From positions 3,815,880 to 3,879,879 of the forward strand of contig CAWCPN010000002.1 of assembly GCA_963797495.1 (NCBI GenBank): a DNA stretch of 64,000 nucleotides, given 5' to 3'. This DNA is from an uncultured Acidobacteriota bacterium (GTDB taxonomy: Bacteria > Acidobacteriota > Thermoanaerobaculia > UBA5066 > Gp7-AA6). The notes under the pieces were generated by a model. That model was not told where the DNA came from and searched no databases. It saw nothing but the letters and a program-made list of their open reading frames with translations. A program made the translations under genes and the position numbers. Positions 30,492 to 51,221 of the stretch are shown in pieces (position 1 is the first letter of the stretch; the number at the start of each line of letters is the position of its first letter).

Positions 30492-31679
30492 TGAAACTGC
30501 GTTTCTCACGCCGGATCGCCGCGCTGACTCCCTCCTCCACGACCGCTGCCGGGCGCAAGGCCAAGGCGCTCGGCCGCGACGGGCGTGGACGTCGTCGACC
30601 TCTCGATCGGCGAGCCCGACTTCCCGACGCCGGCATACGTCGGGCGAGCCGGCGTCCGGGCCATCGAGGGCGGTCGGACCAAGTACACCGACGTGGCCGG
30701 CGAGGCAGCTCTGCGGGACGCGATCGCGGCCAAGTACGCACGCGAGCAGGGCGCCACGGTCGCCCGGGAGAACATCATCGTGACCGCCGGCGCGAAGCAG
30801 GCGGTCTTCAACGTGTGCGTGGCCCTGTTCGACGAGGGGGACGAGGTCGCCCTGTTCTCGCCCTACTGGGTGTCGTTTCCCGAGATGGTGCGCCTGGCGG
30901 GGGCGTCGCCGATCTTCGTGCCCACGTCGCTCGACGACGGCTGGCGCGTCACGGCCGCCGGGCTCGACGGCGCCGGGGCGAGCCGCGCGCGGGGAGTCAT
31001 CCTGAATTCGCCGAACAATCCGACCGGAGCCGTGGCCTCCGCCGCGGAGCTCTCGCGAATCGTCGACTGGTGCGCAGCGCGGGACGCGTGGCTCGTCTAC
31101 GACGAAACGTACGACCGGTTTCTCTACGACGGCCGGCCCCACGCGTCGGCGGCGGCGCTCCGGAGCGGCTACGAACGAATCGTCGTCACCGGCGCCGCCT
31201 CCAAGACCTACGCGATGACGGGATGGCGTCTGGGATGGGCCATCGGACCGCGGGAGCTGATCTCGGCCATGACGTCGTACCAGAGCCACACGACATCGAA
31301 CGCCTCGTCGATTTCGCAGGCGGCCGCGCTCGAGGCGTTGACCGACCTGGAGAGCGCGTCGGCGTCCGTGGCGGACATGCTGGAGCACTATTCCTCCCGC
31401 CGGAAGACGATGGTCGAAGGTCTGGCGGCGATCGGCGGGATCCGCTGTCCGATGCCCGAAGGCGCTTTCTACGCATTCGCGGACGTTTCGGCGCTCTACG
31501 AGCGGAAGGGCGTGTCCGGGTCGGCCGGCTTCTGCGACCGGCTCCTCGCCGAGGCGCACGTGGCCGCGGTGCCGGGCGACGCGTTCGGCGACGACCGCTG
31601 CGTGCGTTTTTCCTTCGCGACGAAGTCGGACCGGATCCGGGAAGGCGTGAGCCGGATCGCCGACTGGTCGCGTCGCTGA
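30491..31679 (+). CDS. PLP-dependent aminotransferase class I/II (aspartate aminotransferase-like), apparent frameshift near 30582
   Basis: GEPDF, GAKQA, NSPNNPTG, DETY, SKTYAMTGWRLG; N-terminus MKLRFSRRI in another frame. Confidence 0.9.
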
Positions 31680-31687
31680 CCATTCAG

Positions 31688-32614
31688 TCAGAAGGACCGG
31701 GAAGCGGCGGCGCCGATCGCGACGGGGGACCCGTCCCGCGGTGCCAGGGCCTGCGCGGCCCGGTGGTCGAGAAACTCGAGATAGGAGCCCCAGGTGGCGA
31801 CCCGGACGGCGGCGCGGACACCGAGGACGAGGCACTGGAGCCCCAGCAGAAGGCCGATCGCCGGCCGGGACGCCGCGGGCATCGTCCAAGCCAGGGCGAA
31901 GGCGCCGAGCCAAGCGGCCGCGCCGAGCGCGAGCCAGAAGAGAAAGAGCGCCAGGGCCCGCAGCCACGAGCCCCGGAGGGCACGACCAGCGAAACCGAAG
32001 GCGCGCCAGGCGCCGATGTCCGGGGAGTAGCGGCGCGCGGCGCGGGCGAAGTCGTAGAGTAGCGACAGGACGCCCCAGACCCCGAGTGCGAGAATGGCGA
32101 CGCCCCAGTCCCAGGCCCGGCAGGCCGCCGATCCCGGGACGGCGTCTTCGAAGATCCGCGCCGCCGCTTCGTTCGCGCCCCCGATCAGGGCCGTCAGGAC
32201 GGAGGCGAGCAGAATTGCGAAGACCAGGAAGCATTTGACGTTGTGCCAGAAATTGCGGCGCGCCGGCTCGAAGAACTGGCCGAACGTGAACTGCCCGCGA
32301 CCGAGCACGACCACGATTCCGCCGGCAAGGAACATCTGGAGAACGACCGAGACGGCGGCGCCTCCGTGAGCGCCCTGGACCACGCCGGTGATCGTCCCCC
32401 AGTTCACACGGGCGAAGTCGAAAAAGTCGGTCGGCGCCGCGGTGGGGGCGTTGGCCAGGAAGTGGTCCCCGGCGAGCGTCCGGCCGACGTACTTGTCGAG
32501 GACCGCGTGCAGGGGAGCGACCCCGGCGAGGGCGATCAGCACGGTGGTCCCCGTCAGCAGCAGGATCAGCTTGCCGTGCCGGAGCGCGCCAAAGCCCGCG
32601 GCAAGGCTCCTCAC
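31688..32614 (-). CDS. Hypothetical polytopic membrane protein
   Basis: About 6 hydrophobic segments; GTGA-coupled to the M1 peptidase. Confidence 0.75.
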   Translation of the reverse strand: MRSLAAGFGALRHGKLILLLTGTTVLIALAGVAPLHAVLDKYVGRTLAGDHFLANAPTAAPTDFFDFARVNWGTITGVVQGAHGGAAVSVVLQMFLAGGIVVVLGRGQFTFGQFFEPARRNFWHNVKCFLVFAILLASVLTALIGGANEAAARIFEDAVPGSAACRAWDWGVAILALGVWGVLSLLYDFARAARRYSPDIGAWRAFGFAGRALRGSWLRALALFLFWLALGAAAWLGAFALAWTMPAASRPAIGLLLGLQCLVLGVRAAVRVATWGSYLEFLDHRAAQALAPRDGSPVAIGAAASRSF

Positions 32615-34758
32615 GCGAGGGCCCACGCGATCTGCTGCCACAGACCGAGAAGGCAGGCGGCCCAGCCGATGTACTTGACGGGTGCCCGTGCGGAGAGGAC
32701 GCGGGTCGCGGCCTTCCCGCGTCCGAGCACCTTCGAGTCGTTCAGGCGGTTCCAGTCCCAGGCGTTTTGGCGGTCGGGGTCCACGACCGCCCAGGCGAGC
32801 TTCGAGCCGTAGCGGATCCGGTATCGGACCCAGCGCGCGGCCGCGGGCAGGTCGCGCTCGAGGATCGTTCCGTCCTCGAAGGCGATCCGGGCGTGGGCGC
32901 CGTGCTCCCAGTCGCCCGTGTTGCCGAAGAGGACGAGCGAGTCATAGATTCGGGGTTCCGTCTGCGCGGTCGGTGCCGGCGCCGATCCGGCCTTCTCCGG
33001 TTGGACGAGCCGCCCCTCTTCGAGCGTGACGCGCCCGGAGGTCCGGTCGAAGACGCCCTCGTCCGGCTGGGCTCTTCGGCTCGATGCCGTCACGACTTCC
33101 CAGTCCAGGCGCGCCGCGCCCTCGATGAGGCTGCGTCGGTACGTCGAGAGGTCCCGGCCCGAGACGCGTTCGAAGGTCCGGAAGAAATCGGAGGTCGACG
33201 GGTGCCGGAACGACCACTCCTGGAAGTAGGCGCGCTGCGCCCGGGAAAAGACCTGCGAACCGAGGTCGTTCTTGAGCTGCGCCATGAAGAGCCCGACCTT
33301 GGGATAGGAGTTCACCTTGTAGGACGTGCTCGAGGCGTAGCACCAGGCGCATCGCCGGATCGGGTCGAGATTGGGAAGCAGCGTGTACTCGAGGTGCGCG
33401 AGCGACAGGGAGTCGGTCCCGATCCCGCCGGGCAGCCGGGCCATGTCGCGCGGCCCGTAGGCGAGAGCCATGGCGCGGTGTTCCGAGTCGTCGTTGAGGC
33501 CCTCGTCGAGCCAGGACTCCTCGAACTCGTTGGATCCGACCATGCCGTACCAGTACTGGTGCCCGAACTCGTGGATCGTCGTGACCTCGAGGATCCGGAC
33601 GCGCTCGAACGGCCAGCGGAGGAGAAACGACTTGAAGACACCGCCGGTGATGAAGGTCGGGTACTCCATCCCGCCCGAGCCCATGCCGTCGTCGGGCGGG
33701 TCCACGACCGTGAGGGTCTCGTAGGGGTAGGCGCCGTACCACAGGCCGTAGAACGCGATCGCCTCCTTGATGCACCGGAGGTATCGGTCCCGGGCCCGCG
33801 ATGCGTGGTCGGGCTGGAGAAGGAGGCGGACCCGGACGGGCTTCAAGGCGATCTCGGCCTCGGTCATGCCGAGCTCGTCGGCGGCCTTCGCGGCCCACCC
33901 GGCGGGAACGTCGCGAGCCGGATCGAACGTGAACTCGGTCACGAGGAATCGCGGGTCGGCCGTCCAGGCGAAGTCGTGAACCCCGTCCTGGACGTACCGG
34001 TACGTCGTCCGGTCGCCGGTCGTCGTCTCGGAAACCCGTTTCCCGGTGGCCCCGACGATGAACCGCGACGGCACGGTCATCGAGACGTCGAAGTTGCCGA
34101 AGTCGGCGTAGAACTCGGAGTTTCCGTGGAACGCGTGGCAGTTCCAGCCTCCCGATCTGCGCTCGCGCATGCCCGCCGGCTCGTAGACGCCGATCTTCGG
34201 ATACCACTGACCGACGAGGAAGTAGTCCCGGACGAAGCCGGTCCTCGCGAAGATCTTCGGAAGCTTCGCCGTGAAGTCGATATCGAGGGTGATCTCTCCC
34301 CGGGGCGGCACGGGGGAGGGCAGGGGCACCGCCAGGACGGTTTCATCGGCCAGGTCGTTGCCGTCGGGCTGGACGAATCGGGCGCCGGGCCTGAGCTCTT
34401 CTCCCCCGGCGGTCTTGATCGAGGCCACATCGATCCAGCCCCAGTCCCGGGCCTTGGGACCGTGCCGATCCCCCCGGAGCTGTCCCCCGGATTCGCGCAT
34501 GAACGTCGACTCGTCGTTCTTGAAGGCGTTCAGGTACAGGTGAAAGCGCAACTCGGCGACCGTGTCGTCCGACGGGTTGCGCCAGATCAGCCGCTCGTGG
34601 CCCTCGAGGATCTTCGTCGACGGATCGAGGGCCACCTCGATCCGGTATTCCACGACGGGTGGCGAGGGGAGTTCCGCGGCTCCGACGGTTCTCGCGGCCG
34701 GCAGGGTCGCGGCCGCGAGCGCCAGCGCCGCTCCGAAGAGCCCCCGAGGATTTTCCAT
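32611..34758 (-). CDS. M1 family zinc aminopeptidase (secreted; C-terminal membrane anchor likely)
   Basis: GGMEYP, HEFGH-x18-E (WLDEGL), YPK; signal peptide; hydrophobic C-terminus. Confidence 0.92.
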   Translation of the reverse strand: MENPRGLFGAALALAAATLPAARTVGAAELPSPPVVEYRIEVALDPSTKILEGHERLIWRNPSDDTVAELRFHLYLNAFKNDESTFMRESGGQLRGDRHGPKARDWGWIDVASIKTAGGEELRPGARFVQPDGNDLADETVLAVPLPSPVPPRGEITLDIDFTAKLPKIFARTGFVRDYFLVGQWYPKIGVYEPAGMRERRSGGWNCHAFHGNSEFYADFGNFDVSMTVPSRFIVGATGKRVSETTTGDRTTYRYVQDGVHDFAWTADPRFLVTEFTFDPARDVPAGWAAKAADELGMTEAEIALKPVRVRLLLQPDHASRARDRYLRCIKEAIAFYGLWYGAYPYETLTVVDPPDDGMGSGGMEYPTFITGGVFKSFLLRWPFERVRILEVTTIHEFGHQYWYGMVGSNEFEESWLDEGLNDDSEHRAMALAYGPRDMARLPGGIGTDSLSLAHLEYTLLPNLDPIRRCAWCYASSTSYKVNSYPKVGLFMAQLKNDLGSQVFSRAQRAYFQEWSFRHPSTSDFFRTFERVSGRDLSTYRRSLIEGAARLDWEVVTASSRRAQPDEGVFDRTSGRVTLEEGRLVQPEKAGSAPAPTAQTEPRIYDSLVLFGNTGDWEHGAHARIAFEDGTILERDLPAAARWVRYRIRYGSKLAWAVVDPDRQNAWDWNRLNDSKVLGRGKAATRVLSARAPVKYIGWAACLLGLWQQIAWALA

Positions 34759-34798
34759 GAACGCCGCGAATGCTGCCCCCACGGCATGGCCGAGTCAA

Positions 34799-34804
34799 TA
34801 CAAT
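34799..34804 (+). promoter_or_regulatory. Putative -10 box (TACAAT) 7 nt before the ATG; leaderless promoter candidate
   Basis: Hexamer in the divergent gap; no SD. Confidence 0.5.
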
Positions 34805-34811
34805 TCCGTGG

Positions 34812-35795
34812 ATGCGAGGCGCGCTGCTGACCGGAGGAACGGGCTTCGTCGGCTCACACGTCGCTCGGGCGCTCGCGAAGGAAGGGTGGTCCGTCCGGCT
34901 GCTCGCACGAGACCCGCGAAGAGTGGACGGCGGAGGACTTTCCGGTCTTCCCGTGGAGGTGATCCCCGGGGGCCTCGACGACGAGGCGGCGCTCGCGCAG
35001 GCCGCCGCCGGGACCGCCGCCGTCGTGCACGTGGCCGGCCTGACCAAGGCCCGCACGCTCGAGGAGTACCGCGAGGTCAACCTGCGGGGCACGGAGCGGT
35101 TGCTCCGCGCGGCCGGCAGAGTCTCCCCGGACGCCCACTTCGTGCTGGTCTCGAGCCAGGCCGCCGCCGGACCGTCGATCGGCGGCCGCCCGGTCGGCCA
35201 TGATGATCCGGCGCGGCCGGTTTCCTGGTACGGCCAGTCCAAGCGCGAGGCCGAGGTCGCCGTCGAACGCGCATGGAGAGGGCCGTGGACGGTCCTGCGG
35301 CCCGGGGTCATCTTCGGCCCGGGAGATCGCAGCCTGTTCGTCTATTTCAAGATGGCGTCGACCGGCTGGATCCCCGTGCCGGCGGCCAGGACACGGGTCC
35401 AGCTGATCGGGGCCGAGCGGACGGCCCTGGCCGTGGCCCGCGCTGCCGGCCGGCGGGACCTCGGCGGTCGTGTCCGGTTCCTTTGCGATCCGCAGCCGGT
35501 TTCCGTCGGCGAGCTCGCCGCCGGGATCGTCAGCGCTTCGGGGAGGGCAGGCCGCCTCATTCCCGTGCCCGATCTCTTCGTCCGAATGCTCGGAGGCGCC
35601 GAAACGGTCGTGGAAAGATTGACCGGACGATCGCGTCCGTTCAATGCGGACAAGGCCCGGGAGCTGCTGGCCGGGGACTGGCTTTGCGATCCCGAGCCCC
35701 TGGCCCGGGAGCTCTCCCTGCCGGCCCCGCCGCCCCTGTCCGAGGGTCTTTCGGCCGCCTGGGCCTGGTACCGGCAGGCCGGGTGGCTTTCTTGA
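34812..35795 (+). CDS. Extended SDR / NAD-dependent epimerase-dehydratase family; CerR-like ceramide reductase candidate
   Basis: [24 protein letters not shown] (YxxxK); directly upstream of the Spt-like gene. Confidence 0.8.
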
Positions 35796-35822
35796 GGGGC
35801 CCGGGCGAAACTTTGTAAAATT

Positions 35823-35831
35823 TGCTAAGAT
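35823..35831 (+). promoter_or_regulatory. Extended -10 TGcTAAGAT upstream of the spt-like gene
   Basis: AT-rich patch ctttgtaaaatttgctaagat; SD ggag follows. Confidence 0.5.
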
Positions 35832-35868
35832 CCGCCCGCCAACTCGGCAACAAAGGCAGGGGGGAGCC

Positions 35869-37111
35869 ATGAGCAAAGTCGCTCGGGCGACGAGGCCGGA
35901 AGCGGTGGGGACTGCTCCGGTCTTCGAAAAATGCTATCGGTACGAGGATGCGAGTCGCGTCCGGCAAACCGGCTTCTATTCCTTTTTCCGGGTGATCGAA
36001 TCGGCCCAGGATCCCGAGGTCGTTCTCGACGGCCGGCGCCTCGTGATGATGGGGTCGAACAACTATCTCGGTCTGACCAACGATCCGCGCGTCAAGGAAG
36101 CGGCGATCGAAGCGATTCGAAAATACGGATCGGGTTGCGCCGGCAGCCGGTTCCTGAACGGAACGCTGGATCTTCACGTTCGGCTGGAAGAGCGACTCGC
36201 CCAGTTCATGCGGCAGGAAGCAGCCGTGACGTTTTCGACGGGCTTCCAGGTCAACCTGGGCGCGATCGCCTGCCTCGTGGGCAAGGGCGACACGGTCTAT
36301 CTCGACAAGCAGGATCACGCCTGCATCATCGATGGCGCGCGCCTGTCGTTCGGCGACGTCAAGAAGTTCAAGCACAGCGATCCGGCCGACCTGCGCCGGC
36401 AGATGCGCAACGACGGGGAGGCCAAGGGGCGACTCGTCGTGGTCGACGGTGTCTTCTCCATGGAGGGGGACGTCGCGCCCCTGCCCGAGATCGTCGGCGT
36501 GGCGCGCGAGTTCGGGGCGGGAGTGATGGTCGACGACGCCCACGGCATCGGCGTGCTCGGCCGGACGGGCCGGGGCACCGCCGAGCACTTCGGCCTCGAA
36601 CAAGAGGTCGACCTGATCATGGGGACGTTCTCGAAGTCGATGGCCTCCGTTGGCGGATTCATCGCCGGCAACGCCACCGTGATCGATTACGTGAAGCACC
36701 GCGCCCGCACGCTCGATCTTTTCGGCGGCGCCGCCTCCGGCCTCCGCGGCAGCCGCGCTGGCAACCGTCGAGATCATGGACCGGGAGCCGGAGCGCCGGG
36801 ATCGGCTGTGGGAGAACACCCGCTTCTTCGCGGAGGGCCTGAGATCGCTCGGCCTCGATACCGGCGAGTCGCGCACGCCCGTCGTCCCGGTCGTCGTGGG
36901 CGAGGACCTGGTCGCGCTGCGCATGGTCCACCGCCTCCAGGAGGAGGGCGTCTTCGTGAACTGCGTGCTTTCGCCCGCGACCCCTCCGGGCCGCGCGCTG
37001 ATCCGGACGTCGCTGATGGCGACGCACTCCCGCGCGCAGCTCGAGAGGGTCCTCGACGCGTTCGAGAAGGTCGGCCGCGAGGTCGGGATCGTGCGCGCCA
37101 GCGCAGTCTGA
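35869..37111 (+). CDS. spt: Alpha-oxoamine synthase, serine palmitoyltransferase-like; one extra base near 36715
   Basis: [44 protein letters not shown] (PLP Lys), SPATP loop; removing one base restores [10 protein letters not shown] into ORF 36776..37111. Confidence 0.75.
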
Positions 37112-37139
37112 ACCGGTCGCGCCGCCGTCGAGCATTCGC

Positions 37140-38279
37140 ATGCCTTCGGATGTCGTGATTCAGCGCATCGGCCGGGGAAAGGCCGATCTGGAGCGTTTCT
37201 TCGACGTCGCCGACCGGATCTACGCCGGGGACCCGCACTGGGTGGCGCCACTGCGATCGGACCTCGCCAAGGTCTTCCAGGACGACAACCCGCTTTTTCG
37301 GCACGGCGAGATTCAGCTCTTCGTCGCGCGGCGCGGCGGAGAGGACGTCGGCCGCGTCGCTGCGATCCTCGATCGCAATCACAACGAGTTTCACGGAGAG
37401 AAGGCGGCATTCTTCGGCTTCTTCGAAGCCGTCGACGACGCGGTCGTCGCCGCCCGTCTCCTCGACGCGGCCGCGCTCTGGGGGCGCGAGCGGAAGATGA
37501 CGGTGCTCCGGGGGCCGACGAACCCGACCCTCAACGACGAGGCCGGACTCCTGGTCGAGGGCTTCGATTCACCGCCGGTCGTGATGATGACGTACAACCC
37601 CCGATCCTACGCGGACCTGATCGAAGGACAGGGCTTTCGGAAGGCCAAGGATCTCCTGGCCTACTGGTTCCCCCTCGAGGAGCGACCGCTCGAACGCCTG
37701 TCCCGGGTGGCCGATCGGTTCCGGAGGCGCTCGCCGGAGATCCGCGTCCGCAATGTCACGCGGTCGGGCCTCGCCCGCGATCTCGCGAAGATCCGGGAGG
37801 TCTACAACGAAGCCTGGGAGAAGAACTGGGGCTTCGTTCCGATGACCCCGGAAGAGATGGACTTCATGGCGGAGCGGCTCAAGCCCCTCCTCGTCGCCGA
37901 GCTGCTCTGGATTGCCGAGGCGCCGAAGGCCGACGGCTCTCTCGAGCCGATCGCCTTCATGCTGATGTTGCCCGACTACAACGTGGCTCTCGCCCCGACG
38001 CGGGGGCGGCTGCTGCCCTTCGGGTGGTTGAAGTTCCTGCTCGCCCGGCGCCGCATCCGCACCGTGCGGGTCGTGACTCTCGGGGTCAAGGGGCCCTGGC
38101 GGATGTCGGGTGTCCAGTCGATCATGATGGCGGATTCGCTGCGGTTCCTCCTGGGCAAGGGCTACACCGGCGCCGAGGTGTCCTGGCTGCTCGAGGACAA
38201 CGAGCTCGTGATCGCCGCCGTGCGGCTCTGGGGCGGCAAGCTCTACAAGACCTACCGGATCTACGAGAAACCGCTGTAG
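37140..38279 (+). CDS. GNAT-fold acyltransferase; bacterial ceramide synthase (bCerS)-like
   Basis: 379 aa: [35 protein letters not shown]+[13 protein letters not shown]; directly downstream of spt. Confidence 0.75.
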
Positions 38280-38297
38280 CCGGCGTGCCGCGCCGGC
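38279..38297. terminator. 7-bp GC hairpin between convergent genes (possible bidirectional terminator)
   Basis: gccggcg-tgccg-cgccggc; no U-tract. Confidence 0.3.
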
Positions 38298-38312
38298 CCG
38301 TCCGCCGAACGG

Positions 38313-39179
38313 CTACGCCGCCGCTCTTCGCCCGGCCATCGCCCGGTCGTAGATCCAGTCCCCCAGGGGCACGCTCGCGAAGGCCAGCGCCGTCCCCGCG
38401 ATCAGGTCGACGACGTAGTGGAAACGGCAGAAGACGGTCGAGATGATCAGACCGGTAGCGATCGGCAACAGGATCCAGAAGACGTCGCGGGCCCGCTTCC
38501 AGGCCACCAGCAGGACGGCGACCGAGATCATGGTGTGGCCGGAAGGGAAGACGTCGAGCTTGGTCTTCTCGAGGTGATTGATCGTGTCATCGATGAAGCG
38601 CGCGACCGGAGTCTGCGTGAGCGACTCGGTGTAGAGGGACAACTGGGCGAAGCGGGGCCCGAGGGCCGGGATGGTGAAGTACCCGGCATAGGAGACGTAG
38701 TAGACGACCATCAAGGTGAAAACGTAGCGCCGCGCCGTCGCCCGGTCGCGGGCCCAGAGCACCAGGCCGAGCGACAGGGCGATGAAGTAGTAGGTCGAAT
38801 AGAAGATGTAGAAGATGTCGTTGACTCCGGGGCGGGCGAAGCGCTCCAGCCAGACGGTCACGTCCACGCCGAAGATCGCGCGGTCGGCGGCGATCAGCAG
38901 CTCGTCGCGCGGCCCCCCGCGGGTCGCCATGATCAGCGGAGACAGCGTGTTGAACAGGATCGGCAGAAAAATGGCGGGGTAGAAGTCCAGGAAGAGCGTC
39001 ACGGGTGCCGGGAGCCGATCCTCCCTCTTGGCCAGCGGAACGATCACCGCAATCACCCCCGCGAGCGCGCCGTAGGCCATCAGGTTCCCGCCCGGGTTGG
39101 CCAGGCGGTCATGGAAGACCACCGTCAGAATCGCGAGCACCGCGATCGCCCCCAGGTGGATGGCCTCGGTCGGTCGCAT
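38313..39179 (-). CDS. PAP2-superfamily membrane phosphatase/phosphotransferase, Aur1/IPC-synthase-like
   Basis: Multi-TM; FYSTYYF, IPALGP, FPSGH and RFHYVVD motifs. Confidence 0.8.
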   Translation of the reverse strand: MRPTEAIHLGAIAVLAILTVVFHDRLANPGGNLMAYGALAGVIAVIVPLAKREDRLPAPVTLFLDFYPAIFLPILFNTLSPLIMATRGGPRDELLIAADRAIFGVDVTVWLERFARPGVNDIFYIFYSTYYFIALSLGLVLWARDRATARRYVFTLMVVYYVSYAGYFTIPALGPRFAQLSLYTESLTQTPVARFIDDTINHLEKTKLDVFPSGHTMISVAVLLVAWKRARDVFWILLPIATGLIISTVFCRFHYVVDLIAGTALAFASVPLGDWIYDRAMAGRRAAA

Positions 39180-39234
39180 GCGCACGCGCCTTTATAACCG
39201 AGGCCGGCCGCGTGCGATAGACTCGCAACCGTCC

Positions 39235-40539
39235 ATGAAAGTCCGTGTGTGGCTCGCCGCCGCGTTGCTCGCGGTCGCGGGTGCCGCTCCGGCGGCCGAG
39301 CCGGCCCCGCTCGTGCTGTCGGGTCGGATCGACACCCCGATCCAGCCGGCGTCGGCCGACTACCTGAAACGGCTCCTGGTCGGCGCCGAGGCGGACGGAG
39401 CGGCGCTCGTCGTCGTGACGCTCTCGACCCCGGGAGGACTGCTGGCCTCGACCCGCGAAATGAGCTCCGCGATACTCGCCTCCCGCGTGCCGGTCGCCAC
39501 CTACGTTGCACCCTCGGGAGCGCAGGCTGCCTCCGCCGGCTTCTTTCTGCTGCTCTCCGGAGACGTTGCGGCAATGGCCCCCGGCACCAACACCGGTGCC
39601 GCCCACCCGGTCGGGGGCGAAGGGCAGGATCTGCCGAAGACGTTGAACGAGAAAGCCGAGCAGGATGCGCGCGCATTCGTGCGGACCCTGGCCCGCGAGC
39701 GGGGGCGCAACGTCGGGAAGGCGGAGGCCGCCGTCGAGAAGAGCGTTTCGTACACCGAGACGGAAGCGCGGGAGGCCGGCCTGGTCGAGATCATCGCCCG
39801 GGACGTCCCCGATCTCGTCGCCCAGCTCGACGGACGGTCCCTGCGCCGCGTCGGCGGGGGCGAGACCCGGCTCGCGCTGTCGGGGGCGCGCATCGAGACC
39901 CGCGACATGGGACGGATGGAGAAGATCCTCGGGATCGTGTCGCACCCCAACGTCGCGTACGTGCTCTTCCTCCTCGGCCTGGTCGGCCTGTACTTCGAGC
40001 TCTCGACGCCGGGAGCGATCCTGCCCGGGGTCGTCGGGGGGATCTCGCTCTTGCTCGCGTTGTACGCGTTCTCTGTTCTTCCCGTGAACGTTGCCGGCCT
40101 CGGCCTGATCCTCTTCGCGATCGTCCTCTTCGTGGCCGAGATCAAGGTCGTCAGCCACGGTCTCCTCTCGCTCGGCGGGGCGATCGCTTTGATCGCGGGC
40201 TCGATGCTGCTCTTTACCGGGAAGGGCGACGCGGCAGGCTATCGGGTCGACCTCGGCATCATCGTGCCGGGACTGCTCCTGACGCTCGGCGTCGTGGGAC
40301 TTCTCGCCTGGCGAACCCTCCAGCTTCGGCGGATGCCGCCGCGGACGGGCCTCGATGCCCTGATCGGGGCGGAGGCGCGCGTCGCGGACGGCTTCGGAGC
40401 GGTGTCCGCACGCGGGCGGGTGCAGGTGGTCGGCGAGTACTGGGAGGCGGTCGGCCCGGACGGCCTTTCGGTCGGAGATCCGGTCCGCGTCGTGCGGATC
40501 GACGGAGACACGCTGCGGGTGGAACGGAGGGACGGATGA
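39235..40539 (+). CDS. nfeD: NfeD long form (membrane-bound ClpP-class serine protease)
   Basis: [25 protein letters not shown] bundle (ELSTPG), C-terminal OB domain GEYWEA. Confidence 0.93.
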
Positions 40540-41294
40540 CGGTTTTCTCACTGCCCGGGTTGGCGATCGCCGGGTTCATCGCGCTGGTCTTTCTCTCGAA
40601 ATGGATCAACGTCCTGAACGAGTACGAGCGCGCGGTCACGTTCTGGCTCGGGCGCCTCGGCAAGACGCCCAAGGGGCCGGGGCTCGTGTTGATTTTCTGG
40701 CCCTTCGAGCGGATGGTCCGCATGTCGCTGCGGACCGTCGTCCACGACGTTCCGTCGCAGGACATCATCACCAAGGACAACGTTTCGGTGAAGGTCAACG
40801 CGGTCGTCTACTTTCGGGTGGTGGCACCCGACAAGGCCGTGGTTCAGGTGGAGAATTATCTCTACGCGACCTCGCAGCTGGCACAGACCACCCTGCGCAG
40901 CGTCCTGGGCCAGGCCCTCCTCGACGAGCTGCTCTCCGAGCGGGAGAAGCTCAACCTCGACCTGCAGAAGGTCATCGACGAGCATACCCAGCCCTGGGGC
41001 ATCAAGGTGTCGCTGGTGGAACTCAAGCAGGTGGACCTCCCGCCCGAGATGCAGCGCGCCATGGCCCGGCAGGCGGAAGCCGAGCGGGAAAAGCGTGCGA
41101 AGATCATCCACGCTCAGGGCGAGCTCCAGGCCGCGACCGCTCTCTCGGAAGCCGCCGAGATCATCGATCGCCAGCCGGCGACGCTCCAGCTCCGATACCT
41201 TCAGACCCTGACGGAGATCGCCAACGAGAAGAACTCGACGATCGTGTTCCCGCTGCCGATCGATCTGATCAAGATGTTCTTCAAGCGCGACTAG
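40536..41294 (+). CDS. Stomatin/SPFH (band 7, slipin) family protein
   Basis: [51 protein letters not shown]. Confidence 0.96.
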
Positions 41295-41390
41295 AGGTTC
41301 GCCGGAAAGGCCCGGGTTCCTCCCGAGGCGTTCCCGGGCGTCCTGCCGCGTACCCTTTCCCGGCTCCCTCGGGCAGGCTAAACTCCCGGG

Positions 41391-42068
41391 GTGCCCGAGC
41401 CGCGGACGCACTATCAGATTTCGCTGACCGCACGTCAGGCGGTCGGAGCGTTCCTGGCGCTGCTCGTGGCGCTCGGGGTCGCCTTCTTCTTCGGCCTGAT
41501 GGCGGGCGCGTCCGGGCGGAGCGGCTCCGCTCCGGCCGCGTCGAACGCGACCCGACCGGACGCGGAGATGGCCGAATGGGTTCCGCCCGTCGAGACGGCA
41601 GTGCCGACCGCGGTGGCCCCGTCGGGCCCCCTCGGCTCACGGACCGAGCTCGGCCCCGGAGCGTTCCAGACAACCCCGGGGCCGGGGGAGGCGCCGGTGC
41701 CGACCACACTGCATCCCTTCGAGGACGCTTCCGCGGAAGAGGCCTCGCCCATCGCGTCCGCGTCGGAGGGCCGGGGACCTGCCCCCGGCAGGCCCGTTCC
41801 GGCGCCCGCCGGTGGGCCCGGCGAACGCTTCTGGGTCCAGGTCGCCTCGCTCTCGTCCAGGGACGAGGCGGGTGCGCTCTCGACGCGCCTCGCCCGCCGG
41901 GGGTTCCGGTCCCAGGTGCTCACGGCCGCCGGCCCGAAAGGGAAGGGGCGGGTCTTTCGCGTCCGCGTGGGGCCCTACGGCTCCGAGGACGATGCCAATC
42001 GTGCGGCCGCCAAGCTGACGAAGCAGGAAAACCTGAAATCGCCCTGGGTCGTTCCGGACGGCCAGTGA
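41391..42068 (+). CDS. SPOR-domain cell-division/peptidoglycan-binding protein
   Basis: N-terminal TM, Pro-rich linker, WVQVASL...FRVRVGPY SPOR domain; TAAACT 6 nt before the GTG. Confidence 0.88.
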   Translation: MPEPRTHYQISLTARQAVGAFLALLVALGVAFFFGLMAGASGRSGSAPAASNATRPDAEMAEWVPPVETAVPTAVAPSGPLGSRTELGPGAFQTTPGPGEAPVPTTLHPFEDASAEEASPIASASEGRGPAPGRPVPAPAGGPGERFWVQVASLSSRDEAGALSTRLARRGFRSQVLTAAGPKGKGRVFRVRVGPYGSEDDANRAAAKLTKQENLKSPWVVPDGQ

Positions 42069-42968
42069 GCTCGCCGCTTCCTGTCCGGGCGCCCGAGTGG
42101 ATCCGCGAGCGCAAGCTGCGGCTCTCCGACCTCCACGCGGTCCGCTCCGTGATGCGGGAGAACGGGTTGCACACCGTGTGCGAGGAGGCCCGCTGTCCCA
42201 ATCGCGGCGAGTGCTTTTCCCGCGCGACCGCCACGTTTCTGCTCCTCGGAGACGTGTGCACGCGGGCCTGCGGCTTCTGTCACATCGCGAACGGTCGGCC
42301 CGCTCCCGTCGACCCGATGGAACCGTGGACGGGTTCGCGCGGCCGTCGAGCGGATGGGCCTGCGCTTCGTCGTGCTGACGTCGGTCGACCGGGACGACCT
42401 TCCCGATGGCGGCGCGTTTCAGTTCGCCGAGACGATTCGCGCGGTGCGGACGCTCGAACCGGTGCCGGGTGTCGAGGTGCTGACTCCCGACTTCCGCGGC
42501 CGGCGGGAATCCCTCGCCGCGGTCCTCGAGGCTCGACCCGAAGTCTTCAACCACAACGTGGAGACCGTCGAACGGTTGTACCGTGAGGTCCGGCGCGGGG
42601 CGAAGCTCGAACGCTCGCTCGGCCTGCTGGCTGCCGCCCGGGAAATGGACCCGGGCGTGACCACCAAATCCGGGTTCATGCTGGGTCTCGGGGAGCGCCC
42701 GGACGAGGTTGCCGAGCTTCTGGGCCGCATGCGGGAGGCGGAGGTCGACATCGTCACGATCGGGCAGTACCTGCAGCCATCGCGTGAAAACCTTCCGGTC
42801 GTCGAGTATGTCCGTCCGGAGGTCTTCGAGCTCTATCGCGAGTGGGGGGAGGCGCTGGGGTTCCGCCACGTCTTTTCCGGCCCGTTCGTCCGATCCTCGT
42901 ATCGGGCCGAGGAAGCGCTCGAGGCCGCCGCCGGAGCCGCCCCGCCAGACGCGGGCCGCGTCCGCTAG
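42065..42968 (+). CDS. lipA: Lipoyl synthase, apparent frameshift near 42326
   Basis: CEEARCPNRGEC and CTRACGFC, then VLTSVDRDDL, HNVETV, TKSG.MLGLGE, GPFVRSSY in a second frame. Confidence 0.94.
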
Positions 42969-42970
42969 CC

Positions 42971-44498
42971 TTGGGCGCGAGGGTCGGCGTCTGGCGCACC
43001 GCGGCGGCGGGTGCCGTTTCCGGGCTCCTTTTCGCGCTGGCCTTCCCGCCGTTCGGTTGGGTCCTCCTGCTCCCGCTGGCGCTGACGCCCTGGATCGTGG
43101 CGCTCGCGTACGAGCCGAGCCGCGCCCGCGCCCTGCTCTCGGGCGTGACTTTCGCGTTCGCCTTCTGGTGCGTGTCGATCCGCTGGATCGAGTACGTCGT
43201 GACCGTCTACGGCGGGCAGAGCGGGGCGATGGGTTTCGTGAGCCTCTTGCTGACGGCGGCGATCCTCTCTCCGCCGTTCGCGCTCGTCGGCTGGGGAACG
43301 ACCGCCGTCGCCGGCGCGGGCCGCAGCGCGCGGTTGGTCGCCTTCCCGCTGTTGTGGATGGCCGGCGAGCATCTGCGCACGGTCTTCCTCGCCGGCTTTC
43401 CCTGGAACCTGACCGCGCACGCCCTCTATCGCCACCCGATCTGGTTGCAGTCGGCCTCGGTCTGGGGAGCCTACGGCGTGGGTGCGTCGGTCGCGGTCAT
43501 CGGCGTGCTGGTGGCGCGGGCGGTGATCGCGCGCCGGATCGGTCCGCTGGCGGCGGCGGCCGGCCTCGTCCTGGTGCTCGGTCTCTGGGGAGCGGTGCGG
43601 CTCGGCCGGCCGGAGGAGGCCGGTCCGACGCTGTCGGTCGCGCTCCTCCAGCCCAACCTCACCGAGGAGGACCGTTCGACGCCGGAGCGGCGGGGCGAAA
43701 GCTACCGGGAGGTCCTCGCGCAGATGGATCGAGCCGCCGAGGCGTCTCCGGACCTGCTGGTGATCCCCGAGTCGACCCTTCCCATCCACTGGCAGGGCAG
43801 CGATCGCGCTGCGCCGCGACTTCGGGGCGATCGCCGCGCGGGGGCCGATGATCCTCTTCAACGATTTCGAGGAGGAGAGCGAGGACCGATACTTCAACGT
43901 GGCCCGGCTTCTCACGATGGATGGTCTGGCCGGGCCGCCGTACCGGAAGGTCCACCTCGTCCCGTTCGGGGAGTACGTCCCGTGGCCCCGGCTCTTCTTC
44001 TTCGTTCGCCGGATCTCGACCGCGATCGGCGCCTTCACGCCGGCCCCGGGCCCGGTGCTCCTACGGTCGGGACCCGTCGCGATCGGCGTCGGCGTGTGCT
44101 ACGAGATCATCTACCCGTCGCTGGCGCGCCGGGAGGTCGCCGAGGGCGCGAATTTGCTGGCGACGATTTCCAACGACTCCTGGTACGGCCGCGGGGGAGC
44201 GCAGCAGCAGCATTTTGCAGGGGCGCTCATGCGCTCGGTCGAGACGGAACGCTACCTGGTGCGGGCGGCGATCACGGGCATCTCCGGAATCGCGGATTCG
44301 CGCGGCCGTATCGTCGCCGAGTCGCGGCCCGACGAACGGGCGACGCTGACGGGGACCGTGCGGCTGCAGACGGGCAGGACGGCGTGGGTGCGGTGGGGGC
44401 ACCGGCTCCCGGTGTTCGCCGACGTGATGGCGCTCGCCGTGCTACTCTTCGCAACGGCGCGCCTCCTGCGCGTCCGCAGACGAGCCGTGAACCCATGA
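42971..44498 (+). CDS. lnt: Apolipoprotein N-acyltransferase, apparent frameshift near 43806
   Basis: TM N-terminal half, GFPWN, QPN, PES; then YRKVHLVPFGEY, VCYEII, ISNDSWY in a second frame. Confidence 0.92.
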
Positions 44499-50587: not shown

Positions 50588-50678
50588 CCGTCTGCCCTGG
50601 AACTCCGCTAGTGTAAACGAAGGGGGGATGGCCGGAAACCATTCACGCAAAGCAGCTTGCGATGGGTAGACTGGTTGC

Positions 50679-51221
50679 GTGCGGAGCGGTCCTGCCCTTC
50701 TGTTCCTGAGCGCCGTCGTGGCGTCGGTCGTTGCCGCCGGATGCAAGGGCAGGGAGGCCGGAAAGCTCGACCCGATCCGCGCGATCCGGGCCCGAGTCGA
50801 GCCCCGGTTCCGGCCTCCCGCCGACGGGCGGATGACCGGGGCGCAGGTGGATGCCTATGTGAAGGTTCGCAGGGCCGTCGGAAGCACCCGGTCGGACACG
50901 CGGGCCGCCCGGGAGCTCGGCATCGACCCGGCCGAGTTCGACTGGATCCGGGCCCGGATGATCGAAGCGTTCGGCCTGCTCGATTCCCGAGCGGTGCACG
51001 AAGCGGCGCTCGAAAGCGCGGCGCGGGCGGTTGCGGCGCTCCGGGCGGCACGCCGGTCGGCTCTCGACGCGCGGACGGCCGCACGGCTCGACGCGGAGAT
51101 CACCGCGGCAGAGCGGGAGCGCGCGGCCATGCGGCGGTTCGACGCCGCGACTCCGGCCGTCGTTGCCAACGCCGCCCTCCTCGCCCCGCGCCGCGCGGAG
51201 CTGGAAGCCCTGGGCCCGTGA
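50679..51221 (+). CDS. Hypothetical lipoprotein
   Basis: Lipobox VAAG-C; helical; TAGACT 6 nt upstream; GTGA-coupled to the next gene. Confidence 0.65.
   Translation: MRSGPALLFLSAVVASVVAAGCKGREAGKLDPIRAIRARVEPRFRPPADGRMTGAQVDAYVKVRRAVGSTRSDTRAARELGIDPAEFDWIRARMIEAFGLLDSRAVHEAALESAARAVAALRAARRSALDARTAARLDAEITAAERERAAMRRFDAATPAVVANAALLAPRRAELEALGP

Follow-up and report, generated by a model that had tools for sequence, protein, structure and literature searches.

The locus described here, from an uncultured soil bacterium of the Thermoanaerobaculia (Acidobacteriota), places predicted genes for ceramide synthesis directly beside an nfeD-stomatin pair, and the question it raises is whether a lipid supply and a membrane scaffold have been brought together in order to work together, or have simply remained neighbours. 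The initial annotation had proposed that the two may be co-located and co-regulated, possibly as part of a raft-like microdomain, and had allowed that the adjacency could be chance. The co-location is borne out, and our analysis shows that it is co-location by descent; functional or regulatory coupling gains no support. We consider it likely that the locus consists of two known modules, standing back-to-back and each with its own promoters, which were joined once and have been inherited within a stable backbone.

Organisation of the locus

The window (the whole 64-kb stretch of DNA that was analysed) contains the following features around the junction.

34812-35795, plus strand: cerR-like SDR (Pfam Epimerase 6e-23, 3Beta_HSD)
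35869-37111, plus strand: spt, serine palmitoyltransferase-like alpha-oxoamine synthase (NCBIfam NF047600)
37140-38279, plus strand: bCerS-like acyltransferase, 379 aa; without a Pfam or NCBIfam model
38313-39185, minus strand: PAP2_3 membrane enzyme (Pfam PAP2_3 1e-21)
39186-39234, no strand: spacer between the divergent genes, carrying a back-to-back pair of -10-like boxes (minus-strand TATAAA, plus-strand TAGACT)
39235-40539, plus strand: long NfeD/STOPP membrane protease (Pfam NfeD1b_N, NfeD_membrane, NfeD)
40536-41294, plus strand: stomatin-type SPFH protein (Pfam Band_7 2e-32)
41391-42068, plus strand: SPOR-domain protein (Pfam SPOR 3e-17)

The gene positions confirm the divergent arrangement first described, with PAP2 on the minus strand and the nfeD-stomatin bicistron on the plus strand, and the coordinates place both directly beside the ceramide trio cerR-spt-bCerS. 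The 55-bp gap reported between them is obtained only if PAP2 starts at the ATG at 39179; the GTG at 39185, which is conserved in relatives, reduces it to 49 bp. The SPOR gene belongs to the conserved backbone but lies outside the claimed sphingolipid-SPFH unit. Scanning 34000-43000 against Rfam gave no structured RNA, and PADLOC found no link to a defence system.

The sphingolipid cassette

The best NCBIfam model for spt, which is split between two frames, is Spt NF047600; the N-terminal part scores 405 bits (model positions 7-268) and the C-terminal part 126 bits (model positions 267-394), and the sum of approximately 531 bits for this frame-split gene falls short of the equivalog cut-off of 640. 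The split, on which the initial annotation is silent, results from a one-base insertion at 36714/36715 in the assembly. Read literally, it would make spt a pseudogene in a lipid cassette that is decaying in this strain, leaving no sphingolipid for any raft, but we regard this as very improbable. The extra base falls at the wobble position of a CTC/CTG codon, which then reads CTCG; it is missing in 22/22 aligned relatives and in a short-read contig (run X1) from a co-occurring strain that is ~95% identical, and both halves of the gene retain a coding-type third-position G+C content. Moreover, lipA (at ~42326) and lnt (at ~43810-43850), 5-7 kb away, have the same kind of +1 break, which argues that all of these breaks are assembly insertions. 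The spt frame break is almost certainly an assembly artefact, and single-base insertions in the assembly falsely break spt, lipA, and lnt.

Our comparison covered ~90 related loci, and 58 ceramide clusters were from outside the clade (other clades and phyla). The bCerS-like protein matches no Pfam or NCBIfam model; it has more than 7,000 homologues, and where a source names them the name is N-acetyltransferase or GNAT. Its gene is located 3' of spt in all 26 clade loci, and spt with an adjoining bCerS-like acyltransferase is found in 44/58 out-clade loci, in other phyla and including Myxococcus and Corallococcus. The cerR-like gene encodes an NAD-dependent SDR/epimerase that is a candidate ceramide reductase, and it adjoins spt-bCerS in 23/26 in-clade and 39/58 out-clade loci. 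The clustering of spt, an SDR, and an acyltransferase of ~380 residues thus recurs across phyla. An aminotransferase (30585-31679) was considered as a further member of the cluster and rejected; it is 31-34% identical to proteins of Myxococcota ceramide loci, but the family is too generic.

PAP2_3 homologues occur near ceramide genes in 14/58 out-clade loci, from several phyla.

The motifs FPSGHT (SGH) and RFHYVVD (HYVVD) of the protein encoded here align with C2 and C3 of PgpB, while C1 is degenerate, with RDRATARRY opposite the KDKVQEPRP of PgpB (consensus KxxxxxxRP). This fits the Aur1/SMS-like pattern, in which C2 (SGH) and C3 (HxxxD) are present and C1 is missing or degenerate. The protein shares with the Aur1/sphingomyelin-synthase type (Pfam PAP2_3, PAP2_C) the PAP2_3 match, SGH, H-Y-x-x-D, the degenerate C1, and the linkage to ceramide genes. 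It scores far under the cut-off for the phosphoinositol dihydroceramide synthase of Bacteroides (20.8 bits for NF052609, cut-off 480) and is not an equivalog of that enzyme; its best match by sequence among solved structures is a phosphatase, PgpB. We suggest that PAP2_3 is probably a ceramide phospho-head-group transferase. The sphingolipid cassette ends at this gene.

In the pathway that we propose, Spt would carry out the condensation of serine and an acyl thioester; the product would be N-acylated by the bCerS-like enzyme and reduced by the CerR-like SDR, and PAP2_3 would probably add a phospho head group, giving a phosphosphingolipid. The same three predicted enzyme types, an alpha-oxoamine synthase with Spt as its best model, the ~380-residue acyltransferase, and the NDUFA9/epimerase-like SDR, make up the Spt/bCerS/CerR system of Caulobacter crescentus, and the gene order found here is the one reported as common for the bacterial ceramide pathway (PMC11087976, PMC11334938). 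Our locus differs from that model in the spt score below the equivalog cut-off and in having PAP2_3 as a fourth, convergent member of the predicted cluster.

The NfeD-stomatin bicistron

NfeD has a signal peptide, a ClpP-like domain, a membrane domain (NfeD_membrane, 9e-24), and a C-terminal OB-fold domain (NfeD, 3e-12). It matches the protease domain of PH1510 (PH1510-N) with E = 3e-27, and its S100 and K140 (Ser100/Lys140) align with the catalytic dyad Ser97/Lys138 (chain positions 83 and 124; dyad according to PMC4208085). The SPFH protein matches human stomatin (E = 4e-68) and PH1511 (E = 4e-67) and, on these comparisons, would be a true stomatin orthologue. The stop codon of nfeD and the start codon of the SPFH gene overlap as ATGA (40536-40539), by which the two genes are translationally coupled, and their junction is intact in 25/25 loci.

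In Pyrococcus horikoshii, PH1510 is a membrane serine protease whose OB-fold domain acts as a scaffold; it acts on the oligomeric stomatin PH1511 and assembles with it (PMC4208085). The pair in the window shares with PH1510/PH1511 the ClpP-like domain, the Ser-Lys dyad, the membrane and OB-fold domains, and an adjacent stomatin-type SPFH gene whose start codon overlaps the preceding stop codon. It differs in being bacterial, in its N-terminal signal peptide, and in standing back-to-back with PAP2_3, and its activity is predicted. STOPP-stomatin pairs of this type occur in more than 350 genomes, and the second module is an ordinary, canonical long-NfeD (STOPP) and stomatin bicistron.

Conservation and origin of the arrangement

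For the initial annotation, an adjacency unique to this genome would have spoken against its reading. It is not unique: PAP2 and nfeD are adjacent in 25/28 informative related loci drawn from two deep clades, the proteins of which are 40-48% identical; the second clade was sampled via homologues of the nfeD of L072 and seven gene-context look-ups. Housekeeping junctions of the same region served as controls: SPOR|lipA is kept in 22/22 loci, lnt|prfB in 21/21, and, with a gap cut-off wide enough to take in the N-terminal part of lnt, lipA|lnt in 21/21. Against these values, the PAP2|nfeD junction is not conserved beyond the regional background synteny. All close relatives are collinear with the window from 28508 to beyond 47094, and the same backbone, of at least 19 kb and also holding SPOR, lipA, lnt, and prfB, is collinear in the second clade.

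On the tree, the nfeD-adjacent arrangement forms one clade (support 100/100), with L072 as its sister by a modestly supported join (90/74). L003, which is without nfeD-SPFH, is nested inside the clade (100/99); it has lost nfeD-stomatin, and SPOR follows directly after the PAP2 promoter. L081 has lost PAP2, and L084 has nfeD-stomatin in a different neighbourhood. Together with L018, these loci show that each module can be lost, or end up elsewhere, without the other.

Outside the clade, no SPFH gene lies within 10 kb of the ceramide cluster in any of the 58 loci (spt 44, cerR 39, PAP2_3 14, nfeD 1, SPFH 0). The single nfeD is a 5'-truncated gene beside cerR in L058 (Nitrospirota, Thermodesulfovibrionales). 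We rejected it as a recurrence, as it has no catalytic serine region and no SPFH partner, and one in 58 is about what chance would give. The 58 out-clade loci therefore hold no independent recurrence of the sphingolipid-SPFH association, and on the tree the arrangement has a single origin. The arrangement arose once, and its occurrences in related genomes are copies of one ancestral layout that do not count as separate observations. We suggest that the modules were joined in an ancestor of a large Thermoanaerobaculia group and since inherited within an unusually stable backbone.

The divergent spacer

The two boxes noted at the outset are present (minus-strand TATAAA, 39191-39196; plus-strand TAGACT, 39218-39223), but they do not overlap; they are 21 bp apart, and only the predicted polymerase footprints would do so. 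The DNA is 69% G+C and both hexamers are rare in it, the window having TATAAA once and TAGACT twice. Equivalent boxes are found in 18/18 orthologous spacers examined (19 including the window) and are therefore more than chance. The divergent, tightly apposed layout is also seen in the second deep clade, and in some species with short spacers the nfeD box is closely preceded by a short TGCGA stretch. Beyond the two boxes and TGCGA, inspection of the spacers by eye revealed no shared operator-like motif.

The -10-like boxes are located 5-14 nt before the start codons, and the same geometry is found at cerR, where a separate TACAAT box stands ~8 nt ahead of the ATG, and at SPOR, which has a TAAACT box of its own. 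Promoters in this group are predicted to be leaderless or to have a short leader, the -10 box adjoining the start codon, and each gene would be transcribed from its own putative promoter. In L003 the PAP2 box persists although nfeD is gone, and in L081 nfeD retains a TATAAT box although PAP2 is gone; the two putative promoters appear to be autonomous.

Such closely apposed boxes could in principle interfere, a polymerase at one promoter excluding the other, such that expression of PAP2 and of nfeD-stomatin would be anticorrelated. The 21-bp separation in the window is compatible with this, as are the short spacers of L001, L005, L008, L013, L014, and the second clade. The spacer length, however, varies from 49 to ~190 bp among orthologous loci. 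In L007, L012, L015, and L019-L021 it is 146-196 bp (with starts placed by tblastn), or ~100 bp in several of these long-spacer loci if PAP2 is N-terminally extended, and the geometry is unconserved either way. Given also that promoter function is itself a prediction, as are the transcription start sites, we consider interference highly unlikely.

Coupling or inheritance

A further alternative is a coupling specific to this lineage, in which NfeD-stomatin would organise, sense, or quality-control an inner-membrane zone where phosphosphingolipid is synthesised or flipped. One form of this would be a scaffold for PAP2_3 or for a putative flippase, creating a microdomain of sphingolipid and SPFH protein comparable to eukaryotic rafts, with the neighbourhood under selection. 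We judge this to be unlikely, and it is likewise doubtful that stomatin cages delimit an inner-membrane site of ceramide handling by PAP2_3 and the flippase, with selection for the adjacency. In favour of coupling, the PAP2|nfeD junction and its divergent orientation persist in 25/28 loci across the two deep clades, and the scaffold resembles human stomatin closely enough to be classed as its orthologue. In eukaryotes, stomatin concentrates in cholesterol/sphingolipid domains (PMC13724742), and sphingolipid microdomains have been proposed in bacteria, albeit without genetic evidence (PMC12724326). The functional membrane microdomains of Bacillus and Staphylococcus offer a partial parallel, in that an SPFH scaffold is partnered by NfeD and a specialised lipid is proposed to go with the scaffold; there, the scaffold is flotillin rather than stomatin, the lipids are polyisoprenoid, and the lipid genes are unlinked to the scaffold genes (PMC11222466), whereas the case here is known from gene adjacency.

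Some observations do count against mere inheritance. The junction is kept although nfeD is only ~46% and prfB ~55% identical between the clades. Ordinary unlinked neighbours usually separate over such divergence. The divergent orientation with apposed boxes is kept in both clades, and the truncated nfeD beside cerR in L058 points the same way. The coupling inference gains nothing from the adjacency, because the arrangement has a single origin, the same block carries lipA, lnt, and prfB with junctions at least as well conserved, the arrangement is missing from 58/58 out-clade ceramide clusters, each module can disappear or relocate without the other, and the putative promoters are autonomous with variable spacing. 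The adjacency is also unremarkable post hoc, because many types of membrane gene beside the cluster would have drawn attention.

The likely locations of the components argue in the same direction. By analogy with PgpB, the active site of PAP2 would be periplasmic and stomatin would sit at the cytoplasmic leaflet, placing the two at opposite leaflets. Sphingolipids reach the outer membrane in those bacteria that have been studied (PMC11087976), whereas stomatin and NfeD belong to the inner membrane, and this difference favours mere co-location. The only public runs that cover this stretch are low-depth soil DNA metagenomes, and a search for RNA runs containing it gave no match. The sequence evidence neither supports nor refutes co-regulation or a raft function; from it, we infer that functional coupling is probably absent and prefer two modules joined once and inherited together.

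If the coupling were nevertheless true, the locus would provide the first bacterial membrane domain of sphingolipid and true stomatin, as in eukaryotes, and a functional link would give a genetic handle on whether microdomains of sphingolipid and SPFH proteins predate eukaryotes. As the evidence stands, the value of the locus is mostly cautionary.

Gene content and protein identities

The window has a G+C content of 69%, and its reading frames were set from third-position G+C content and family searches. Named sources among its homologues assign the organism to the Thermoanaerobaculia (Acidobacteriota); the contig is 4.1 Mb long. The initial annotation had read the sequence features correctly overall: PAP2 is divergent from nfeD-SPFH, and the ceramide genes adjoin. 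Downstream of the SPOR gene lie lipA, lnt and prfB.

Features of the locus
32611-34782, minus: M1 peptidase (Pfam Peptidase_M1)
34812-35795, plus: cerR-like SDR/epimerase (Pfam Epimerase)
35869-37111, plus: spt (best NCBIfam model serine palmitoyltransferase, NF047600)
37140-38279, plus: bCerS-like acyltransferase, 379 aa, without family model
38313-39185, minus: PAP2_3 membrane enzyme (Pfam PAP2_3)
39235-40539, plus: long NfeD (NfeD1b_N, NfeD_membrane and NfeD domains)
40536-41294, plus: SPFH protein (ATGA overlap with the nfeD stop)
41391-42068, plus: SPOR-domain protein (Pfam SPOR)
34759-34811, 39186-39234, 41370-41390: promoter-like TAnnnT boxes, 5-14 nt before starts (cerR TACAAT, PAP2 TATAAA, nfeD TAGACT, SPOR TAAACT)

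The 379-aa protein is a candidate bCerS from its gene context. Compared with solved structures, the SPFH protein matches human stomatin (E = 4e-68) and Pyrococcus PH1511 (E = 4e-67) and is, as judged from sequence, a true stomatin; the NfeD N-domain matches the PH1510 protease (E = 3e-27), with Ser100/Lys140 aligned to the Ser97/Lys138 catalytic dyad of PH1510 (PMC4208085). The SGH and HYVVD motifs are intact in the PAP2 protein and its C1 motif is degenerate, a pattern that would fit a phosphotransferase better than a phosphatase.

The spt frame changes at 36714/36715 (region 36700-36725), where one extra base at a CTC/CTG leucine wobble position reads 'CTCG': the window has ACG CTC G ATC, against ACG CT(C/G) ATC in 22/22 aligned relatives. 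The base is also absent from a short-read soil-metagenome contig (run X1) of a co-occurring strain, about 95% identical. Against intact relatives, lipA (42065-42905) and lnt (apolipoprotein N-acyltransferase, 43013-44360) show +1 frame switches near 42326 and near 43810-43850. We rejected a pseudogene reading, since 8 kb contain three +1 breaks, of which two interrupt housekeeping genes; they point to assembly insertion errors, with single-base insertions frequent in this assembly. The extra spt base is probably a consensus artefact of mixed-strain long-read assembly.

The PAP2/nfeD spacer

The proposed 55-bp gap holds if PAP2 starts at ATG 39179, but relatives conserve GTG 39185 as the start codon, and measured from there it is 49 bp. 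Both boxes described there are present, TATAAA on the minus strand (39191-39196, its one occurrence in the 64-kb window) and TAGACT on the plus strand (39218-39223, one of two), but instead of overlapping they are separated by 21 bp. The second TAGACT (50667-50672) sits at the 5' margin of a plus-strand ORF of coding type (50670-51221). Every one of the 18 orthologous spacers inspected, and the window's own as a 19th, has TAG[AGT][AC]T 8-14 nt before the nfeD start and a TATAAA, TATAAC or GATAAT-type box 5-8 nt before that of PAP2, over spacer lengths of 49 to about 190 bp; more distant Thermoanaerobaculia (the second clade) have TATAAT before nfeD and TACAAC before PAP2 at these positions. 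The same geometry recurs at cerR and SPOR. We infer that promoters in these genomes are ordinarily laid out in this way, with leaders short or absent; boxes so close to four starts suggest that short-leader or leaderless transcripts may be common in this group.

Gene order in relatives

Relatives of the bCerS-like protein were scanned at one genome per species (80 loci, up to 10 kb each side). Across the close clade (bCerS 61-90% identical) the genes almost always stand in the order M1 peptidase, cerR, spt, bCerS, PAP2 (minus), nfeD, SPFH, SPOR, and collinearity runs over the entire stretch from 28508 to beyond 47094. Locus L072, far more distant (prfB 55%, nfeD 46% identical), matches this order from spt as far as a TPR gene. 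A search with its NfeD sampled the second clade, whose proteins share only 40-48% identity with those of the window, SPFH being the exception at 71-78%. Among seven homologues viewed in their contigs, five (L082, L083, L085, L086, L087) keep PAP2 (minus), nfeD, SPFH, SPOR, lipA, lnt, prfB. L081 lacks PAP2 and cerR, so that bCerS directly abuts nfeD; in L084 a PKD-domain protein and a radical-SAM peptide cluster precede nfeD-SPFH, and lipid genes are absent within 9 kb. That cluster (L084:3140-6709) is of peptide-modification type: radical SAM/SPASM, PqqD, ScmC-like and NTP_transf_5, followed by a Peptidase_C25 protein. Some members of the second clade (L072, L081, L087) have spt and bCerS but no cerR at the position ahead of spt where it normally stands; their reductase may lie at another site in the genome or have been replaced.

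About 15 genes (window 28508-48749) form a backbone whose order is common to L002-L021, L072 and L081-L087, with proteins of the two clades only 40-55% identical: SpoU methylase, Na/Ca exchanger, aminotransferase, 6-TM protein, M1 peptidase, ceramide genes, PAP2, nfeD, stomatin, SPOR, lipA, lnt, prfB, TPR protein and Ser/Thr kinase.

Junctions intact/informative, from 29 loci
spt/bCerS: 26/26
nfeD/SPFH: 25/25
SPOR/lipA: 22/22
lipA/lnt: 21/21 (gap cut-off widened for the lnt N-terminal part)
lnt/prfB: 21/21
PAP2/nfeD: 25/28
cerR/spt: 23/26
M1 peptidase/cerR: 18/25

On the bCerS tree the arrangement falls in one clade (support 100/100), with L072 as sister (90/74). L003, in which SPOR directly follows PAP2 without nfeD-SPFH, is nested inside (100/99), and its lack of the pair is therefore a secondary loss.

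Ceramide clusters outside the clade

The 58 outside loci come from other Thermoanaerobaculales, Holophagales, Bryobacterales, Myxococcota, Verrucomicrobiota, Elusimicrobiota, Nitrospirota and others. Beside bCerS they hold spt (44/58), cerR (39/58) and a PAP2_3 homologue (14/58); SPFH occurs in none of the 58 and nfeD in one. With 20-kb windows and one to two operons of this kind in a genome, a single hit is about the number expected by chance. This nfeD (L058:3046-4736, Thermodesulfovibrionales) is 5'-truncated, without catalytic serine region or SPFH, directly upstream of cerR-spt-bCerS. Two ORFs sharing a repeated 'HAVWYNCG' string precede it and may be a repeat element or insertion scar.

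Inherited neighbourhood or functional link

Stomatin and NfeD reside in the inner membrane. The bacteria investigated to date have Spt and bCerS active on the cytoplasmic side and CerR in the periplasm, and they export the lipids to the outer membrane (PMC11087976). With lipids and scaffold thus assigned to different membranes, a shared domain would not be the obvious expectation. Our literature search found no paper that connects sphingolipid genes genetically with nfeD-stomatin; for Sphingobacterium, microdomains rich in sphingolipid have been raised as a speculation (PMC12724326), and human stomatin has been associated with cholesterol/sphingolipid domains (PMC13724742).

Synteny of spt, PAP2, nfeD and SPFH in related genomes confirms that the lineage widely shares the adjacency, and a lineage-specific functional link between lipid cassette and nfeD-stomatin could be read into it. 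We consider such a link improbable. Junctions of genes without plausible functional link (SPOR/lipA, lipA/lnt, lnt/prfB) are better kept than PAP2/nfeD, and the signal is therefore that of a very stable backbone, with nothing specific to lipid or scaffold. Given in addition the single origin, the lack of recurrence elsewhere and modules separable in L003, L081, L084 and L018, conservation of PAP2/nfeD is no argument for coupling; the variable spacer, and predicted promoters that each outlast loss of the partner gene, also speak against it. An inherited neighbourhood without functional coupling is, we suggest, probably the correct reading: two known modules would have been joined once and then passed on inside a Thermoanaerobaculia backbone whose gene order is unusually stable.
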